Counted from the first letter of the whole stretch, positions 35,566 to 44,531 are shown. The stretch is 63,480 bases of DNA, filler included, from 5 parts of 5 records of this genome joined end to end with filler, not necessarily neighbours in it; one strand, 5' to 3'. Numbers and translations are program-made. The notes: generated by a model not told the origin, from the letters alone.

Positions 35566-35566
35566 T

Positions 35567-35601
35567 AGCTTTAAGCTTTAAGCTTACAGCCTTAAGCTAA
35601 T
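35567..35601. repeat. Heptamer array (AGCT type), 5 units
   Basis: AGCTTTA AGCTTTA AGCTTAC AGCCTTA AGCTAAT fills the paaE-paaA spacer. Confidence 0.9.
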
Positions 35602-35604
35602 AGT

Positions 35605-36561
35605 ATGAATGAAAAGGAAATAAAGAATTTAGAGGAAATTTTTGAAGCTCGCATAGCGCGTGATGAAAAAATAGAGCCGAAAGATTGGATGCCAGAAAAA
35701 TACCGACAAACGCATATTCGGCAAATGAGCCAACACGCACATTCCGAAATTATTGGGATGCTTCCTGAAGGAAACTGGATTACTCGAGCGCCTTCTTTAC
35801 GAAGAAAAGCGGCATTGCTTGCGAAAGTTCAGGATGAAGCTGGCCACGGTCTTTACTTGTATTCAGCTTGTGAAACTTTAGGGATTTCTAGAGATGAATT
35901 GTATGAACAACTACATAGTGGAAAGGCAAAATACTCTTCAATTTTCAATTACCCCACCATCACTTGGGCAGATATGGGCGCGATAGGTTGGTTGGTAGAT
36001 GGTGCAGCAATTATAAATCAGGTACCGCTTTGTAATACTTCATTCGGACCTTATGCACGTGCAATGGTGCGAGTTTGTAAGGAAGAAAGTTTTCACCAGC
36101 GCCAAGGTTTCGAAATTATGCTAACCCTTTGTCGTGGCACTGAAGAGCAAAAAGCAATGGCGCAAGATGCGCTTAATCGTTGGTGGTGGCCAAGTTTAAT
36201 GATGTTGGGACCAACTGATGCGGAATCCATTCACACCGAACAATCGATGAAATGGAAGTTGAAACGAAAAAGTAACGACGAATTACGTCAGCAATTTATA
36301 GATCAAACTGTGCCACAAGCAGATCTTTTAGGGATTACAGTTCCAGATCCAGATTTGAAATGGAATGAAGAAACAGGTCATTATGATTTTGGTGCAATAA
36401 ACTGGGATGAATTTTGGCAAGTGGTAAAAGGCCATGGTCCTTGTAATAAAGAGCGAATGAAAGCGAGAGTTGATGCATGGGAAAATGGAGAATGGGTTCG
36501 CGATGCGGCTATGGCATACGCAGAAAAAAATACAACTAAAAAAGTAGCAAAAGCAAGTTAA
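35605..36561 (+). CDS. paaA: Phenylacetyl-CoA epoxidase subunit A
   Basis: [38 protein letters not shown] di-iron motifs. Confidence 0.98.
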
Positions 36562-36562
36562 A

Positions 36563-36624
36563 TAGACGTAAAGCGTGAGATTTAATACGTGAATAAAGTG
36601 TCTAAAATCTAAAATCTAATGTCT
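36563..36624. repeat. Inverted heptamer arrays (AGA/TCT type), no insert
   Basis: Left TAGACGT AAAGCGT GAGATTT AATACGT; right GTGTCTA AAATCTA AAATCTA ATGTCT (reverse-complement units). Confidence 0.7.
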
Positions 36625-36912
36625 GATAATAAAAAAAACTGGCCCCTTTGGGAAATATTTGTCCGCAGTAAAAATGGATTAGAGCATCGTCATTTTGGTA
36701 GCCTTCATGCAACCGATGCAGAAATGGCAATGGAAAATGCGCGCGATGTTTACACACGTAGAAACGAAGGTGTGAGTATTTGGGTGGTGGAAAGTAAAAA
36801 TATTACCGCTTCAAATCCACAAGATAATGGTGAAATGTTTGAGCCTGCACAAGATAAAGTATACCGTCACCCCACTTTTTATGATTTACCAGACGAGGTG
36901 AAGCATATGTAA
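36619..36912 (+). CDS. paaB: Phenylacetyl-CoA epoxidase subunit B
   Basis: WPLWEIFVR, HxGSLHA, ARDVYTRRNEGVSIWVV, YRHPTFY. Confidence 0.98.
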   Translation: MSDNKKNWPLWEIFVRSKNGLEHRHFGSLHATDAEMAMENARDVYTRRNEGVSIWVVESKNITASNPQDNGEMFEPAQDKVYRHPTFYDLPDEVKHM

Positions 36913-36923
36913 GTTGAAAGGGG

Positions 36924-36958
36924 GTTAGGAAATAGGTATTTGGAATTTGTGATTATGA
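36924..36958. repeat. Left heptamer arm of four-helix-bundle cassette 1
   Basis: GTTAGGA AATAGGT ATTTGGA ATTTGTG ATTATGA. Confidence 0.7.
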
Positions 36959-37332
36959 ATAGTAAATATCATTTTAAGTTTGAAGATTTAAATGTCTACC
37001 AAAAAGCGATAGATTTTGGAGAATTAATTCATGCTCAAGTTTTAAAATTCCCTCAATACGAATTGTATGCGCTAACTTCTCAATTTAGAAGAGCAGCAGA
37101 TTCAATTGCTTTAAATATTTCCGAAGGATATCCTGGAAGCGACCCTCAATTCATTAAACATATTAATTATGCTATATATAGTTCTAACGAGTGTGTTTCT
37201 TGTAGTACAAAAGCAAAAAGAAGAAGTTATATTTCTAATGAAGAAGATGAAGAAAATAGAAAGTGTTTATCAGAACTAACAAAAATGCTTTCATCTTTAA
37301 GAAATAAAATTAAAGAACGAACTAATGCCTAA
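36955..37332 (+). CDS. Four helix bundle protein (23S rRNA IVS protein / TIGR02436 family)
   Basis: FEDLNVYQKA, FPxxELYALTSQFRRAADSIALNISEG, SSNE motifs; ORF open from TTG 36940. Confidence 0.92.
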   Translation: MNSKYHFKFEDLNVYQKAIDFGELIHAQVLKFPQYELYALTSQFRRAADSIALNISEGYPGSDPQFIKHINYAIYSSNECVSCSTKAKRRSYISNEEDEENRKCLSELTKMLSSLRNKIKERTNA

Positions 37333-37362
37333 TCCCACAATACCTAATGCCTTATTACAAAT
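37321..37362. repeat. Right heptamer arm of four-helix-bundle cassette 1 (inverted)
   Basis: ACTAAT GCCTAAT CCCACAAT ACCTAAT GCCTTAT TACAAAT = reverse complement of ATTAGG/ATTTGT-type units. Confidence 0.75.
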
Positions 37363-38116
37363 GAAAAATCAAAATTTATACAATTACATCCTTACAATTG
37401 CAGACAATTCTTTGATTCTTGCACAACGATTAGGTGAGCTTTGTGGGCACGGACCTAATTTGGAAACCGATATAGCACTTACTAATATTTCGTTAGATTT
37501 ATTAGGGCAAACAAGAAGCTACTACCAATATGCTGCAAAAATTTCCGAAGAAAATAAAACAGAAGACGATATTGCTTTCCTAAGAATTGAAAGAGAATAT
37601 AAAAATTGCCTGCTTGTTGAACAACCAAATACCCATTTTGGATATGTAATTGGAAGACAGTTTTTGTTCGATGTTTATCATTTGTTGCTAATGGAAAAAT
37701 TGCAAGATAGTAAAGATGAAATTCTAACTTCAATAGCCAAAAAAGGAATTAAGGAAGTAAGTTATCACAAACGATTTTCTGGTGATTGGGTGAAGCGTTT
37801 AGGAGATGGAACTGAGGAAAGCAACCAAAAAATGCAAGAAGCAATCAATGACCTTTGGCGATTTACGGATGAACTTTTTTATATCACAGAAGCTGAAAAA
37901 ACAATGATTGAAGAAGGTATTGGTATTGATATTTCAGCCTTTAAAGAAAAATATTACGCCGAAGTTTCTGAGTTGTTAGAAGAAGCAACACTTACTGTTC
38001 CTGAAAATAAATATTTTACAAAAGGCGGGAAAGAAGGAATTCACAGCGAACATATGGGCTATCTACTCGCAGAATTGCAATATATGCAACGTACGTACCC
38101 GAATATGACTTGGTAG
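37361..38116 (+). CDS. paaC: Phenylacetyl-CoA epoxidase subunit C
   Basis: ADNSLILAQRLGELCGHGPNLETDIA, KEVSYH, WVKRLGDGTEES, YMQRTYPNMTW; upstream in-frame ATG at 37325 lies in the repeat arm. Confidence 0.97.
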   Translation: MKNQNLYNYILTIADNSLILAQRLGELCGHGPNLETDIALTNISLDLLGQTRSYYQYAAKISEENKTEDDIAFLRIEREYKNCLLVEQPNTHFGYVIGRQFLFDVYHLLLMEKLQDSKDEILTSIAKKGIKEVSYHKRFSGDWVKRLGDGTEESNQKMQEAINDLWRFTDELFYITEAEKTMIEEGIGIDISAFKEKYYAEVSELLEEATLTVPENKYFTKGGKEGIHSEHMGYLLAELQYMQRTYPNMTW

Positions 38117-38143
38117 TCAATTCTCAACTAACAATTTTCAATT
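38117..38143. repeat. Left arm of 27-bp inverted repeat (TCAATT heptamers)
   Basis: TCAATTC TCAACTA ACAATTT TCAATT; 24/27 complementary to 38522-38548. Confidence 0.9.
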
Positions 38144-38157
38144 CTAAAAAAATAATT

Positions 38158-38516
38158 ATGGAAAGGAATTTTGATTTAGAAGATAGACTTATAGATTTTG
38201 CAATTATTTGTATAAAGTTATTTGCAAAAGTTGAATACAATTATGCTTTAGACCATTTGTCAAAAACAACTAATAAAGTCTTCAACTGGAACCGCTTTAA
38301 ATTATGGAGAAGTACAAGGAGCGGAGTCTGCTAAAGATTTTATTTAAAATGGGCATTGTACTTAAAGAGTTAAAAGAGTCCAAAGTAAATTTGAAAATTC
38401 AAATTGGAACCGAAATATTAAAAGATATAGAGAAGGCTCAATTTGGTTTAAAAGAATGTGAAGAATTAGTGGCGATTTTCGCTAAAAGTATAAAAACTGC
38501 AAAAGCAAAAAAATAA
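38158..38516 (+). pseudogene. Four helix bundle protein, two frameshifts
   Basis: MERNFDLEDRLIDFA...LSK / QLIKSSTGTALNYGEVQGAESAKDFI / KMGIVLKELKESKVNL...ELVAIFAKSIKTAK spread over three frames, shifts near 38265 and 38345. Confidence 0.88.
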
Positions 38517-38521
38517 TTAAG

Positions 38522-38563
38522 CATTGAATATTGTTAGTTGAAAATTGAGCCTTGAAAATTGAA
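38522..38563. repeat. Right arm of inverted repeat (ATTGA heptamers)
   Basis: CATTGAA TATTGTT AGTTGAA AATTGAG CCTTGAA AATTGAA; overlaps the paaD TTG start. Confidence 0.9.
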
Positions 38564-39052
38564 TATTTAAATATCGAAAGTCATTTAATTGAAACATTAT
38601 CATCCGTTTCTGATCCGGAAATTCCTGTGCTTTCAGTTTTAGATTTGGGTGTTATTCGTGAAGCAGTTGAGGAAAATGGTATTGTGAACATAAAGTTGAC
38701 GCCAACCTATTCTGGCTGCCCAGCAATGGATGTAATTGGAGATGATTTAAGAACGGCTTTTTTAGAAATTGGTAAAGAAGCAAAGGTTGAGTTAATCCTT
38801 TCACCAGCTTGGTCCACAGATTGGATTAGTGAAGAAGGGCTCCTAAAGATGGAGGAATATGGCATTGCCAGACCACTATCAGAACTTCACGATAAAGATG
38901 TTTTGTTAGGAGATAAAAAACACGTAAAATGTCCGCAATGCGGAAGTACAAATACCCATTTAGTTAGTCAATTTGGTTCTACTGCATGCAAAGCACTTTT
39001 TAAATGTGACGATTGCCTAGAGCCGTTTGATTATTTTAAATGTTTGAAATAA
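38552..39052 (+). CDS. paaD: Phenylacetyl-CoA epoxidase subunit D
   Basis: DPEIPVLSVLDLGVIR, TPTYSGCPAM, CPQCGS...FGSTACKALFKCxxCLEPFDYFK; TTG start. Confidence 0.96.
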   Translation: MKIEYLNIESHLIETLSSVSDPEIPVLSVLDLGVIREAVEENGIVNIKLTPTYSGCPAMDVIGDDLRTAFLEIGKEAKVELILSPAWSTDWISEEGLLKMEEYGIARPLSELHDKDVLLGDKKHVKCPQCGSTNTHLVSQFGSTACKALFKCDDCLEPFDYFKCLK

Positions 39053-39087
39053 AATGAATAATGAATAATGAAAAATGAAAAATGAAA
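39053..39087. repeat. Heptamer array AATGAAW x5
   Basis: AATGAAT AATGAAT AATGAAA AATGAAA AATGAAA right after the paaD stop; degenerate TTCA-type counter-arm at ~39104-39135. Confidence 0.9.
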
Positions 39088-39143
39088 AAGCTTATTAAAA
39101 AACTTCATCATTTAGTTCTTCAGGTTCAATATTAAATAATATT

Positions 39144-39926
39144 ATGAGTAAAAGCATAACTACCCTTATAGAAAACAAAGTAGCAACTTTAACCTTAAAC
39201 CGGCCAGAGGTTTTTAATAGTTTCAACCGTGAAATGGCGTTGTTACTACAAACCGAATTGGACGCTGCTGAAAAAAATCCAGATGTTCGCGCAATTATAA
39301 TTACAGGAAATGGAAAAGCATTTTGTGCAGGACAGGATTTAAAAGAAGTTACATCGCCTGAATTGAACCCTGGTTTCAAAAAAATTCTGGAGGAACATTA
39401 CAATCCAATTATTTCCCGTATTCGAAATATTGAAAAACCGATAATTGGAGCAATTAATGGTGTAGCAGCTGGAGCTGGTGCAAATATTGCTTTGGCGTGC
39501 GATGTAGTTATTGCTTCTGAAAACGCAAGTTTTATTCAAGCTTTTAGTAAAATTGGCTTGGTTCCGGACAGTGCAGGCACATTCTTTTTGCCCCGTTTAA
39601 TTGGTTTTCAAAAAGCATCAGCTTTAATGATGTTGGGCGATAAAGTTTCTGCCGAACAGGCGGAAAAACTTGGGATGGTTTATAAAGTAGTTTCTTTAGA
39701 AAACTTTATTGAAGAAGTAAACAATATAGCTTTAATAATGGCAAATATGCCTACCAAAGCATTGGGATTAACCAAACGTTTGCTAAATAATTCAATGCAA
39801 AATTCTTTGGAAGAACAACTAAATATGGAGAGCAAACTTCAAATAGAAGCTGCCCAAAGTGAAGATTATGCAGAAGGAGTTGATGCATTTGTGAGCAAAC
39901 GAAAGCCAAATTTTAAAGGAAAATAA
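39144..39926 (+). CDS. paaG: 2-(1,2-epoxy-1,2-dihydrophenyl)acetyl-CoA isomerase (crotonase family)
   Basis: AFCAGQDL, NGVAAGAGANIALACD, FIQAFSKIGLVPDSAG with catalytic Asp; position in paa operon. Confidence 0.92.
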   Translation: MSKSITTLIENKVATLTLNRPEVFNSFNREMALLLQTELDAAEKNPDVRAIIITGNGKAFCAGQDLKEVTSPELNPGFKKILEEHYNPIISRIRNIEKPIIGAINGVAAGAGANIALACDVVIASENASFIQAFSKIGLVPDSAGTFFLPRLIGFQKASALMMLGDKVSAEQAEKLGMVYKVVSLENFIEEVNNIALIMANMPTKALGLTKRLLNNSMQNSLEEQLNMESKLQIEAAQSEDYAEGVDAFVSKRKPNFKGK

Positions 39927-40003
39927 TTGACACCTTGCTTATAGAAAACAATGAATTATGTTTAATTTTTGTTGCGAGTATTAAAACTTCAACAAAAAAA
40001 TAA
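39926..40003 (+). pseudogene. 3'-end remnant of a four helix bundle gene
   Basis: Translates IDTLLIENNELCLIFVASIKTSTKK*, aligning with the C-terminus of the 38158-38516 copy (ECEELVAIFAKSIKTAKAKK*). Confidence 0.7.
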
Positions 40004-40014
40004 TATTTAATAAT

Positions 40015-41220
40015 TTGGAAAATCAAAAATCAGAAATTGGTAATCAACAATCGTTAATCAAGTTTGTTGGAATTATAGGAAGCGGAACAATGGGAAGTGG
40101 TATTGCGCAAGTAGCCGCCACTGCTGGGTGTTCTGTGAAATTATACGATACAAATGATGAAGCTTTAGAAAAAGCTAAAGCAGCTTTGGAAAAAATAATG
40201 AGTCGTTTGGTGGAGAAGGGAAAAATTGATTCCAAAGAAAAAGAACGAATTCAGGGTAATATTAAATATGTAAACTCTCTTAAAGATTTAAAAGATTCAG
40301 ATTTAACAATTGAAGCAATTGTTGAAAATTTAGCTGTTAAAAAGAATGTTTTTTCAACCTTAGAAAAATTTGTTTCCGAGAAATGTATCATTGCTTCAAA
40401 CACATCTTCATTGTCAATCGCATCAATTGCTTCGTCACTTGAAAAACCAGAGCGTTGCGTTGGGATTCACTTTTTTAATCCAGCGCCTCTAATGAAGTTG
40501 GTGGAGGTAATTCCCGCAATACAAACTTCCGAAGAAACACTTCAAAAATCTGTAGAAACTATAAAAAATTGGGAAAAAACGGTTGCCGTTGCTAAGGACA
40601 CCCCAGGTTTTATTGTAAATCGGGTAGCGCGTCCATTTTATGGTGAGGCCTTGCGTATTTATGAAGAAGGAATTGCCGATTTTGCAACTATTGATGATGC
40701 AATGAAAGAAATTGGTAATTTTAGAATGGGCCCCTTTGAGTTAATGGATTTTATAGGAAATGATGTTAATTATACCGTGACCGAAACCGTTTTTGAGGCA
40801 TTTTATTACGATCCGCGATACAAGCCTTCCTTTACCCAAAAACGTTTTTCCGAAGCGGGTTACTTAGGAAGAAAATCTGGCCGTGGCTATTATAATTATT
40901 CCGAAAATGCAGAAAAAAAGCAAGCTGTTATAAACGATGGATTAAATGTTGAAGTTGAGGTTTTTGATAGAATATTAGTAATGCTAATCAATGAGGCTGC
41001 TGATGCACTTTTTTGGAATATAGCTTCTGCGGAAGATATTGATAATGCAATGACCAAAGGTGTTAATTACCCAAAAGGTTTGTTAGCTTGGGCAAATGAA
41101 AAAGGTATCGATTGGTGTGTAAATAAAATGGATGAATTATACGCTACTTATCATGAAGATAGATATCGTTGTTCTCCGTTACTTCGGAAAATGAACCTTG
41201 AAAACAAAACATTCTTTTAA
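40015..41220 (+). CDS. paaH: 3-hydroxyadipyl-CoA / 3-hydroxyacyl-CoA dehydrogenase
   Basis: GIIGSGTMGSGIA, EAIVE, SNTSSLS, GIHFFNPAPLMKLVE, PGFIVNR; TTG start, first ~15 codons repeat-derived. Confidence 0.93.
   Translation: MENQKSEIGNQQSLIKFVGIIGSGTMGSGIAQVAATAGCSVKLYDTNDEALEKAKAALEKIMSRLVEKGKIDSKEKERIQGNIKYVNSLKDLKDSDLTIEAIVENLAVKKNVFSTLEKFVSEKCIIASNTSSLSIASIASSLEKPERCVGIHFFNPAPLMKLVEVIPAIQTSEETLQKSVETIKNWEKTVAVAKDTPGFIVNRVARPFYGEALRIYEEGIADFATIDDAMKEIGNFRMGPFELMDFIGNDVNYTVTETVFEAFYYDPRYKPSFTQKRFSEAGYLGRKSGRGYYNYSENAEKKQAVINDGLNVEVEVFDRILVMLINEAADALFWNIASAEDIDNAMTKGVNYPKGLLAWANEKGIDWCVNKMDELYATYHEDRYRCSPLLRKMNLENKTFF
40021..40062. repeat. Heptamer array (AATC type) x6 inside the paaH 5' end
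   Basis: AATCAAA AATCAGA AATTGGT AATCAAC AATCGTT AATCAAG. Confidence 0.85.
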
Positions 41221-41627
41221 TGCTAAATTCTAAAAAAATACCTGTAAAAATGCTAAGTCAAGACGCTTTTAGTTCTTGGCTCGGGATAGAGATTTTAGAA
41301 GTAGAAAAAGGTAGATGTAAAGTTGCAATGACTATACGGAAAGAGATGCTTAACAGTATGAATAAAGCCCACGGCGGCATTAGTTATAGTTTAGCAGATA
41401 CCGCTTTCGGTTTTGCTGCAAATACCCACGGAAAATACGCAGTGTCCATAGAAACGTCAATAAATCATATTGAAGCACTTAATGAAGGCGATTATCTTAC
41501 AGCGGAATCGGTTATTGAAAAAGTAAATAATAAACTCGGTTTTAATATTGTTGAAGTAAAACGTGGAACTGAATTAGTTGCACTTTTTAAAGGTGTAGTT
41601 TATAGAACAAGTAGGGATTGGGAATAA
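41220..41627 (+). CDS. paaI: Hotdog-fold acyl-CoA thioesterase
   Basis: MLNxxxxAHGGISYSLADTAFGFAAN motif; start overlaps the paaH stop. Confidence 0.92.
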   Translation: MLNSKKIPVKMLSQDAFSSWLGIEILEVEKGRCKVAMTIRKEMLNSMNKAHGGISYSLADTAFGFAANTHGKYAVSIETSINHIEALNEGDYLTAESVIEKVNNKLGFNIVEVKRGTELVALFKGVVYRTSRDWE

Positions 41628-41710
41628 TAGAATAGACTATGTTTTTAAAACTAAAAAAATCAAATTTAAAACTTAATTTTAATCATCAATAATCTAAAAA
41701 TATTCAAATT

Positions 41711-42571
41711 ATGAAATGGCAAGGTAGAAGACAAAGTGGTAATGTTGATGATCGACGTGGAATGAGTAAAGGTAAGATGGCTGCTGGTGGCGGAATAGCA
41801 GTAACGTTAATTGTGCTTGCCTTACAGTTTTTTGGAGGTGAAACTGGACAGCAACTAGCTCCAATTGTTGAGCAAATTGGAAATAGCCGAACAACACAAC
41901 AGGTAGAACAAAGAGAACTTACCGCTCAAGAAAAGGAGGTTGGAAACTTTGTAGCTACTGTTTTAGCAGATACAGAAGATGTTTGGGCGCAAATTTTCAG
42001 TCAAAATAATATCGGAACATACCAAGAGCCAACAATGGTTTTATTTACAGATGCTGTAAGTTCAGGCTGTGGAAATGCTAGCTCAGCTTCTGGACCGTTT
42101 TATTGTCCTGCCGATCAGAACCTGTATATGGATCTGACATTTTTTGATGAATTAAAAACTCGTTTCGGCGCTAAAGGTGGAGATTTCGCAATTGCTTATG
42201 TAACCGCTCATGAAATTGGACATCACGTACAAACACTACTCGGAACATCCAAAAAAGTATCGCAGCTTCAGCGACAAACTACTAAAGTAGAAGCTAATAA
42301 GCTTTCTGTTGCGTTAGAGTTACAAGCTGATTTTTATGCGGGACTTTGGGCACATTATAACCAAGAATATTTAGAAGAAGGAGATATTGAAGAAGCGCTG
42401 AGTGCAGCAAATGCAGTAGGTGATGACGCAATTCAAAAAAGAATGCAGGGCGATATTGTACCCGATAGTTTTACACATGGAAGCTCAGAACAGCGTATGA
42501 AATGGTTTATGAAAGGCTATAAAACTGGAGATATAAAACAGGGAGATACCTTTTCAGAAATATTAAATTAA
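41711..42571 (+). CDS. Neutral zinc metallopeptidase (YpfJ-like)
   Basis: MKWQGRRQSGNVDDRRG, GPFYCPAD, AHEIGHHVQ, ELQADFYAG, SFTHGSSEQR. Confidence 0.92.
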   Translation: MKWQGRRQSGNVDDRRGMSKGKMAAGGGIAVTLIVLALQFFGGETGQQLAPIVEQIGNSRTTQQVEQRELTAQEKEVGNFVATVLADTEDVWAQIFSQNNIGTYQEPTMVLFTDAVSSGCGNASSASGPFYCPADQNLYMDLTFFDELKTRFGAKGGDFAIAYVTAHEIGHHVQTLLGTSKKVSQLQRQTTKVEANKLSVALELQADFYAGLWAHYNQEYLEEGDIEEALSAANAVGDDAIQKRMQGDIVPDSFTHGSSEQRMKWFMKGYKTGDIKQGDTFSEILN

Positions 42572-42652
42572 ATAGGAACGATTGAAGAATATCCAATTTA
42601 TAAGTATGAATTTTTAATTTTATTTCAACAATCGTTAATCAAAAAAATCTTT

Positions 42653-43956: not shown

Positions 43957-44202
43957 ATGGCAACATTCACTTCTTCTTTACCCGATAAACTATTAAATGA
44001 TTTAGCAAAAGTAGCTACCGAGCTTCAATTGCCAAAGAATAAAATAATTGAAAAAGCTTTAAAAATATATTTAGAACAATTGGATCGTGCTGCATATCTT
44101 AAATCCTATAAAGAAATGGCTGAAGATGTAGATATGTTAGTTTTGGCTGAAGAAGGAATGGCAGATTATTTCAAAACAATTAGCGAGGACGAGATGTTAT
44201 GA
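43957..44202 (+). CDS. Ribbon-helix-helix antitoxin
   Basis: TFTSSLPDxL strand then helices KNKIIEKAL; acidic tail LAEEGMADY; ATGA overlap with the toxin. Confidence 0.85.
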   Translation: MATFTSSLPDKLLNDLAKVATELQLPKNKIIEKALKIYLEQLDRAAYLKSYKEMAEDVDMLVLAEEGMADYFKTISEDEML

Positions 44203-44531
44203 AGCAAGGCGAAATTTATGAAGTTTACCTCGACCCTATAAAAGGAAGTGAACAAGGCGGAAGAAGGCCAGCTGTAATCATTTCTGGGAATTTAGCAAAC
44301 GAAAACCTTAATACGGTGATTATTTGCCCAATGACATCCAAACTAAAAAATTACCATGGAAATTTAATTGTCCAACCCAATAATATAAATGGTCTAAAAA
44401 ATACTTCTGAAGTAATGACCATACACATTTGTTCCATATCAAAAGAGCGATTACAGTCAAAATGTGGAATGTTAGACAAGACGGAATTTAATCTGGTAAT
44501 TGAAAGCTTACAGAAAATAATTAAATATTAA
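44199..44531 (+). CDS. PemK/MazF family toxin
   Basis: GEIYxVxLDPxxGSEQGGRRPAVIIS, CPMTS, SISKERL. Confidence 0.93.
   Translation: MKQGEIYEVYLDPIKGSEQGGRRPAVIISGNLANENLNTVIICPMTSKLKNYHGNLIVQPNNINGLKNTSEVMTIHICSISKERLQSKCGMLDKTEFNLVIESLQKIIKY

Follow-up and report, generated by a model that had tools for sequence, protein, structure and literature searches.

What occupies the spacers of a bacterial phenylacetate (paa) operon, and why do they carry so many kinds of 7-nt repeat? The question is raised by a stretch of 63,480 nucleotides (the window), in which a reading of the sequence alone, here called the original prediction, had noted 7-nt-period arrays at seven operon junctions and small four-helix-bundle genes between some of them. 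From a comparison with related operons, we consider it probable that small foldback cassettes belonging to one family occupy the stop/start junctions of this Aequorivita-like operon. We show that a complete cassette measures ~390-500 bp and consists of a left array of ~4-5 degenerate 7-nt repeats, a promoterless four-helix-bundle gene (PF05635/TIGR02436) in operon sense, and a right array that repeats the left one as its inverted complement. It spans the interval from the upstream stop to the downstream start, and the next gene takes its leader, start codon and first codons from the right arm.

The operon lies within the low-GC part of the window (~24.9-46.4 kb, 33-38% G+C). According to Pfam, it comprises a TetR regulator, paaE, paaA, paaB, paaC, paaD, paaG (enoyl-CoA hydratase), paaH (3-hydroxyacyl-CoA dehydrogenase), paaI (thioesterase), a Zn-peptidase gene, paaJ (thiolase), a MazEF-like pair and a paaZ-like gene. 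A PaaC scan of genome contigs recovered 69 related operons, mostly from Aequorivita and other Flavobacteriaceae, with 50-90% PaaC identity (loci are designated L003 and so on, genomes G001 and so on). Repeat statistics and those based on hidden Markov models (HMMs) refer to 1.10 Mb, made up of part of the window and the 69 loci, and genome-wide counts refer to four to eight related Aequorivita genomes rather than to the source organism. The family HMM was built from 68 Pfam-confirmed junction open reading frames (ORFs), selected among 113 found in the 152 spacers measuring 250 nt or more; 67 of these 68 exceed the Pfam cut-off.

Presence and absence vary among related operons, as had been anticipated. 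Among 610 junctions scored, 151 were minimal (≤30 nt), 66 held an intact four-helix-bundle gene, 14 held a copy broken at differing places and 310 were gene-less spacers of 31-249 nt; 69 had other content, including GIY-YIG genes, MazEF pairs and glyoxalase genes. With gene-less hairpins among the spacers, every predicted stage of decay was thus encountered. The family HMM gave 86 matches, all on the operon strand, corresponding to 80 cassettes, all within paa spacers, and the junctions of outgroup operons were mostly minimal. Genome-wide, PF05635 genes shared the orientation of their upstream neighbor in 27 of 27 cases and that of their downstream neighbor in 25 of 28 (four genomes). On the operon tree (FastTree on nine concatenated Paa proteins from 69 of 70 operons, one with fewer than 1000 aligned residues being excluded), cassette presence at six junctions required minima of 6, 18, 10, 11, 10 and 7 changes, at least 62 in total, for 9, 23, 13, 11, 12 and 8 carriers, respectively; these counts are approximate because the tree derives from the paa proteins themselves. 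Overall, these data show a rapid turnover, in which units are gained, lost and exchanged for others.

Arm types are particular to the individual junction, and more than one type occurs at several junctions; at least four unrelated alleles were found at paaA/paaB and at least three cassette types at paaB/paaC. The N terminus of PaaB differs between minimal, hairpin and cassette alleles, indicating that the downstream gene has its start codon and first few codons exchanged for those of the element. The original prediction of a sense insertion between a stop codon and the next start therefore agrees with the occupancy of the junctions and with the orientation, but the insertion is not a clean one. 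In addition, since the minimal allele has its own PaaB N terminus, it could not be regenerated by deletion of a cassette.

The arrays exceed what shuffled sequence yields. Tandem Repeats Finder (TRF) reported 172 period-7 arrays in the 1.10 Mb, compared to 28 after block shuffling; another 50 arrays have period 14 and 18 have period 21. Of these 240 arrays, 92 are found no farther than 150 nt from a cassette, a zone that makes up 4.7% of the bases (~eight-fold enrichment, in line with the association that had been proposed), a further 109 fall in the remaining paa spacers, and 39 are elsewhere. A lag-7 run was present in 89 of the 310 gene-less spacers, compared to 15, 15, 1 and 2 for lags 6, 8, 5 and 9, and lag 7 also dominates lags 5, 6, 8 and 9 within the arms. 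The arms have a median of 4.6 units, and the unit number ranges from 3 to ~18 among orthologues. In the 63-kb window, five of the six period-7 rows returned by TRF fall within 35.5-40.1 kb.

The two arms of a cassette are complementary. The mean duplex energy was -31.8 kcal/mol for cognate arms and -20.1 kcal/mol for non-cognate ones (p 1e-18), and 75 of 106 arm pairs scored at least 12 (shuffled maximum, 11.2), with a median stem of 29 bp. When resolved by heptamer phase, Watson-Crick pairing reached 91% in the core and 57% in the variable phases, a value inflated by picking the register with the best score, compared to 33% with the register slid by one unit. Because the variable phases also pair, the arms are true mirror images and not merely arrays sharing a core. 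In the window, surviving arms had been described as reverse complements. This is so at paaC/paaD, where 28 of 32 positions are Watson-Crick pairs and the duplex (-27.2 kcal/mol, z -5.7) was equaled by 0 of 200 shuffles, but at paaB/paaC the statement holds for the heptamer core only.

Gene and arms travel as one unit. Indeed, when cassettes at different sites encode proteins at least 60% identical, their arms cross-pair in 40% of 52 pairs, compared to 0-3% for less related proteins; arms thus co-vary with protein clade. A different operon of G002 contains a relative of the paaA/paaB cassette, ~71% identical and carrying the same arms, and the homology between the two comprises left arm, gene and right arm and ends at the upstream stop and the downstream ATG. 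The same alignment pattern was found between the paaB/paaC cassette of the window and a paaH/paaI cassette (L050). In fact, the paaB/paaC cassette of the window is nested among paaH/paaI cassettes that share its TAGG/CCTAAT arms (73-76% identity). Its homologues were present in 35 of 151 sampled Flavobacteriaceae genomes. Of the 30 homologue loci listed, 9 are at paaH/paaI, 1 before paaD, 1 at paaE/paaA and 19 outside paa operons, and the closest two among the matches listed (76% and 73%) are at paaH/paaI and have TAGG/CCTAAT arms. Along the paaH/paaI protein lineage, the core shifts from GAGGT to TAGGT, GAGCT, TTAGGG, GTTGAGT and others, and the right arm remains complementary. The mobility that had been proposed is thus in agreement with a varying presence and with the same arms at unrelated sites.

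Gene-less hairpins of 60-150 nt share arm types with the gene-bearing cassettes, and by eye their loops retain remnants of cassette ends; they probably derive from a cassette by internal deletion. They multiply in some genomes: AATC-type hairpins occupy five junctions in L003, and four-unit AATC arrays in five Aequorivita genomes number 25, 97, 162, 65 and 33 at period 7, compared to 5, 29, 18, 3 and 17 at period 8 and 5, 1, 2, 1 and 0 at period 6. The gene itself also varies in number, with 12, 26, 4 and 9 PF05635 matches in four genomes, where nearly every such gene has, by eye, its own short-period arms. Beyond Aequorivita, both PF05635 genes of the unrelated high-GC genome G001 are flanked by inverted short-period arrays, and both cyanobacterial plasmid genes inspected carry heptamer arrays. 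On the Anabaena sp. 90 plasmid pANA02 (L103, 200-1000), a four-helix-bundle gene lies between cas6 and cas4, with ~300 nt of alternating GGTGACA/GGGAACA heptamers upstream and hardly any right arm.

As the original prediction had stated, no transposase or integrase domain was found among the 53 ORFs of the window. Transposase domains were also absent from the cassettes, and no reverse transcriptase (RVT_1) was found in the window ORFs. The Y1 transposase family PF01797 had one match in G002, two weak ones in G003 and none in G004 or G005, and these are not beside cassettes. Phage records gave no tblastn match, and PADLOC recognized none of six four-helix-bundle proteins, nor the GIY-YIG protein or the MazEF-like pair. 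In these searches, no recognizable transposase, integrase or consistently present reverse transcriptase came to light as the inserting enzyme.

Every array listed in the original prediction is present in the window, at all seven junctions (Table 1).

Table 1. Arrays, genes and remnants at the paa junctions of the window (positions counted from its first nucleotide)
Feature	Position	Strand	Description
paaE/paaA gene-less array	35566..35604	+	AGCTTTA x4.6 at 35567-35598, palindromic AAGCTT core; TRF period 7, score 43
paaA/paaB gene-less hairpin relic	36562..36621	+	Decayed left arm and TCTAAAA right arm
paaB/paaC cassette, left arm	36913..36954	+	TAGG-type heptamers
Intact four-helix-bundle gene, 125 aa	36955..37332	+	PF05635, TIGR02436
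paaB/paaC cassette, right arm	37322..37360	+	CCTAAT-type heptamers; likely paaC start ATG 37361 directly after
paaC/paaD cassette, left arm	38117..38157	+	TCAATTx heptamers; TRF period 21
Four-helix-bundle pseudogene, two frameshifts	38158..38516	+	Spread over three frames
paaC/paaD cassette, right arm	38517..38575	+	ATTGAAA-type (xAATTGA) heptamers; overlaps paaD start region (TTG 38552)
paaD/paaG gene-less hairpin	39051..39143	+	AAAATGA x5.6 (39051-39089), short loop, decayed TTCA-type right arm (39103-39130)
3' remnant of paaG/paaH-type four-helix-bundle gene	39929..40003	+	Last 24 codons and stop
Right arm of lost paaG/paaH cassette	40015..40066	+	xxxAATC heptamers (40019-40062); TRF 40019-40037
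peptidase/paaJ relic, AATC-type hairpin	42572..42652	+	8-bp stem AACGATTG/CAATCGTT and AATC run

The three gene states predicted for the window were all recovered. The protein of the intact paaB/paaC gene matches PF05635 (E 1.3e-25, 90.1 bits against a cut-off of 33.8) and TIGR02436 (E 1e-25, 90.1 against 24) and has relatives of determined structure in 2gsc_A (E 7.9e-10) and 2rld_A (E 6.4e-4); the left arm of this cassette aligns with left arms in L004, L006, L030, L063, L069 and L050. In the doubly frameshifted paaC/paaD copy, the family HMM matches only the two ends, at model positions 3-38 and 64-119 and in different frames, and intact orthologues exist in L005, L014, L023, L030, L034, L035, L039 and L063; TRF places its right arm at 38523-38571 (period 7, 7 copies). 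The remnant is the one at paaG/paaH. Its frame-3 translation fits the C termini of paaG/paaH cassette proteins, remnant and right arm together match the intact L020 cassette with 86.6% identity over 142 nt (blastn), and the right arm aligns with right arms in L013, L020 and L031. The ORF that starts at TTG 40015 passes through the AATC array, which is now read as the 5' end of paaH (40015-40077), so that PaaH may have an N-terminal extension translated from the repeat. A second candidate for a 3' remnant, at paaD/paaG, was rejected, as the family HMM finds nothing there.

The four remaining junctions are gene-less. Short arrays of the paaE/paaA type occur at the same junction in L003, L014, L016 and L023, and the window's spacer has no significant fold (z +0.12). 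At paaA/paaB, the right arm (TCTAAAA x2.7 at 36601-36619, 100% matches in TRF) includes the paaB ATG (36619), and the relic (fold z -1.8) is the GTGAGAC/GTCTCAC hairpin allele present in L016, L026, L029 and others. The paaD/paaG hairpin has a TRF score of 64 and a fold z of -1.6. In the peptidase/paaJ relic (fold z -0.24), AACGATTG lies at 42577-42584 and the AATC-type run at 42626-42649; the relic shares a 17-nt match with the paaG/paaH right arm, and fuller AATC hairpins stand at this junction in L003, L006, L028 and L034. The paaI/peptidase spacer of the window has no array, and paaH/paaI is a 2-nt junction. Other contigs in metagenome runs match the AAAATGA array (39051-39089) and then run into different heptamer arrays, e.g., GGAAAGT. 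Contigs from four runs were identical copies, with no informative joint.

The protein offers further clues. Among 70 proteins, six polar positions in helices 2 and 3 (Q, R, S, N, E and E) are near-invariant, and the PDB entries 2gsc and 2rld have five chains each. The paaA/paaB-type protein weakly resembles Avd, with an E value of 4.8e-6 to NF033474 (26.8 bits against a cut-off of 80) and of 7e-8 to phrog_3206. To our knowledge, no function has been assigned to the large TIGR02436/PF05635 family.

How an operon could accommodate such elements may be pictured by analogy to the related ORF-bearing intervening sequences (IVSs) of 23S rRNA. In this model, which we propose tentatively and which takes up the arm pairing and looping out supposed in the original prediction, the cassette would be transcribed together with the operon, the arms would fold back in the transcript, and the insert would be looped out or cut out, as RNase III does with the rRNA elements, leaving the operon functional. 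A role for the protein is more speculative, and we regard it as rather doubtful: each subunit of the homopentamer known from crystals of relatives would read one 7-nt unit of the array that belongs to it, and the protein would serve as a maintenance or mobility factor for the element. Less likely still is the broadest version of this idea, namely, that a pentamer wrapping its own array of ~five 7-nt repeats, like the TRAP ring, might by this recognition be the core of a transposase-free mobile element colonizing stop/start junctions, and that 23S rRNA IVSs, the thousands of genes annotated "four helix bundle protein" and the intergenic heptamer repeats of flavobacteria and cyanobacteria might all stem from one element family.

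Several observations weigh against the cassette reading or parts of it. At the intact gene of the window, the arms share the heptamer core but pair no better than shuffles do (12 of 14, ungapped, z -0.3), and the gene-less relics of the window fold weakly (z -1.8 to +0.9). The period is not always 7, since some genes are flanked by arrays with a period of 6 or 8 nt. Selection at the RNA level would be expected to leave an excess of G·U among arm mismatches, and none was seen (57 G·U, 93 A·C and 204 transversions), which lends RNA pairing no support; in five uniform orthologous groups, moreover, arms match their own partner no better than the arms of orthologues, so that concerted evolution was not detected. 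No target-site duplication is visible at the two site pairs compared (paaA/paaB with G002 and paaB/paaC with L050), and around carriers we found a flat excess of similarity of 0.02-0.05 with no decay that would mark a recent import. The number of changes on the operon tree carries the uncertainty already noted, and the correspondence of pentamer and repeat is a numerical match alone.

A further point of this kind comes from selection on the gene, and it leads to the alternative that we take most seriously, although we consider it unlikely. In six orthologous groups (2-9 sequences each, after dropping members whose predicted start yielded an in-frame stop), the ratio of nonsynonymous to synonymous substitution rates (dN/dS) was 0.03-0.11, compared to 0.02-0.07 for the flanking genes. 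These sequence comparisons show that intact genes are kept by strong purifying selection. A long residence at one junction (dS ~0.6-1.6) under such selection would equally fit a gene useful to the host, and in 42 of 45 pairs the paaA/paaB cassette, counted with its arms, surpasses paaA in conservation. With values like those of the paa enzymes, "purely selfish" is too simple, and this part of the original prediction is also at odds with a cassette more conserved than its neighbors. The elements could then be host modules, i.e., RNA elements between cistrons that act in processing, stability or translational coupling, similar to repetitive extragenic palindromic (REP) sequences or bacterial interspersed mosaic elements, combined with beneficial RNA-binding regulators, their patchiness being due to interspecies recombination and occasional loss. 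The strict sense orientation, the use of the right arm as leader and start of the next gene, and the correlation of cassette identity with host identity (rho 0.53) would suit such modules as well. They are harder to reconcile with the quarter of junctions that hold no element at all (151 of 610) and the mostly minimal outgroup operons, with genes broken at different places in 14 of 80 cases, with copy numbers of 4-26 per genome, and with the same unit in unrelated operons while several unrelated arm types alternate at one junction.

The remaining alternatives are weaker. Vertical descent of ancestral cassettes from most junctions, with differential decay and deletion but no mobility, would account for orthologous cassettes that share arms and gene at one junction, for the abundance of decay stages and for the missing co-conversion tract. 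We nevertheless judge it improbable, as deletion could not restore the distinct PaaB N terminus of minimal alleles, paaA/paaB holds four or more unrelated alleles and paaB/paaC three or more types of cassette, the window's paaB/paaC cassette groups with paaH/paaI cassettes, the paaA/paaB type recurs in another operon, and the number of changes nearly equals that of carriers. Spread through the cassette RNA, by an Avd-like protein together with a host reverse transcriptase, could draw on the weak similarity of the paaA/paaB type to Avd and on the invariable sense orientation; it is more improbable again, since the richest genome, G003 (26 four-helix-bundle matches), is without an RVT_1 match, whereas G004, with 4 matches, has three RVT_1 genes, and no reverse transcriptase was found in the window. 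Finally, the arrays might be slippage products of AT-rich spacers that lie beside genes by chance, as the variable unit number and the one-sided 300-nt array of the Anabaena plasmid would allow. This we find scarcely credible in view of the enrichment beside cassettes, the complementarity of cognate arms, their co-variation with protein clade at different sites, the excess of lag 7 over its neighbors, and the inverted arrays at both genes of the high-GC G001.

Is the foldback cassette a known kind of element? Its closest counterparts are ORF-bearing IVSs in 23S rRNA, which occur in helix 45 of Coxiella burnetii and in Leptospira and Brucella (cited in PMC4990558). In the Coxiella IVS, a terminal stem of 28 bp is combined with tandem heptameric repeats that precede the S23p ORF, and RNase III excises the element (PMC4990558). 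These elements resemble the cassettes in having a protein of the same family in the loop, a terminal stem of ~28-29 bp, heptameric repeats just before the ORF, a size of ~430 nt and decay of the ORF in some copies. They differ in that cassette arms are whole heptamer arrays with many cores, in that intact cassette genes are strongly selected whereas the Coxiella ORF was judged expendable, and in that RNase III excision has been demonstrated for the rRNA elements only. The location differs as well: 80 cassettes lie between paa genes and 28 between protein-coding ORFs, with none in an rRNA helix (25 or 45), and the right arm of a cassette additionally provides leader and start for the gene that follows.

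In diversity-generating retroelements, Avd acts as a cofactor that binds nucleic acid and forms a pentamer. It belongs to a related four-helix-bundle fold family (weak HMM matches), but the cassettes have neither a reverse transcriptase nor a template/variable repeat pair nearby. Inverted arms of short tandem repeats, variable in length, are also known from the Drosophila FB foldback elements. Like miniature inverted-repeat transposable elements and foldback transposons, the cassettes exist in gene-bearing and gene-less forms that share arms, with bursts in some genomes; unlike them, the gene-bearing form has no transposase, there is no visible target-site duplication, and insertion is strictly in sense at stop/start junctions. 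REP/REPIN-RAYT systems likewise place hairpins inside operons and flank a single gene with its own repeats, but the gene flanked here is PF05635 and not a Y1/HUH enzyme, the arms are periodic arrays, and PF01797 occurs in only two of four genomes. The short tandemly repeated repetitive (STRR) sequences of heterocystous cyanobacteria are tandem heptamers in intergenic DNA, described as repeats alone. The likeness extends to the two cyanobacterial plasmid genes inspected, both of which carry tandem heptamers; we found no published description of a link between STRR and a gene, subscription journals being outside the search. Free-standing homing-endonuclease genes and integron cassettes are also small promoterless sense genes between genes (GIY-YIG genes stand at paaB/paaC in 4 loci), but the cassettes have no nuclease or integrase domain and no attC-type single 3' site.

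The pattern points to a previously undescribed kind of mobile cassette, related to rRNA IVSs. In the literature searched, which excluded subscription journals, we found no description of such operon cassettes, or of the link to heptamer repeats beyond the Coxiella IVS; apart from the paper on that IVS, just a review of diversity-generating retroelements turned up. We know of no explanation, since 1990, for the origin of rRNA IVSs. The 69 relatives amount to a natural experiment, in which the same junctions are empty, filled, broken or reduced to a hairpin, and they reveal an element that rewrites the start of the neighboring gene. For annotation, this means that start codons and N termini beside such elements are element-derived. 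Questions about these proteins and about heptamer repeats thereby become testable at the bench, including binding of the protein to the repeat, processing by RNase III and translational coupling.

Other insertions vary at the same junctions. The Zn-metallopeptidase gene (41711-42571) separates paaI from paaJ in 37 loci, and paaI is directly followed by paaJ in 23. Between paaJ and paaZ, the window carries a MazEF-like pair (43957-44531), consisting of an unassigned 81-aa ORF and a PemK/MazF toxin; PemK ORFs stand at this junction in the window and in 8 of the 69 other loci and represent another variable operon insertion. A DUF5615 (PIN-like) ORF (L069, 4008-4370) fills a 662-nt paaE/paaA spacer and resembles a toxin-antitoxin-type insertion; the L010 spacer at this junction is similar in size (663 nt).

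Small GIY-YIG nuclease genes replace the cassette at paaB/paaC in L021 (7620-7952), L026 (7572-7844), L029 (7619-7951) and L034 (1479-1811), each preceded by a GC-rich palindrome of the ATTCCCGCGAAGGCGGGAAT type. By eye, gene-less palindromes of this type fill paaC/paaD in L009, L011, L013, L021 and L028. Together, GIY-YIG gene and palindrome would make up a second family of gene-plus-hairpin cassettes at these sites.

Along the window (1-63480), G+C content is 55-58% up to ~24.9 kb, 33-38% up to 46.4 kb, ~50% up to 52 kb and 41-47% thereafter. Genes are truncated at these breaks in composition; for example, 24971-25474 matches just the last 47 positions of the H+-PPase model. The window resembles a composite of contigs from different organisms, and G001, which has no paa region, shares sequence words with its high-GC part alone. 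Lastly, two more families of short palindromic repeats, of the GTCACCCTGAGCGCAGTCGAAGGG and GTCATTCTGAACTTGTTTCAGAATCTCAT types, recur in paa spacers.

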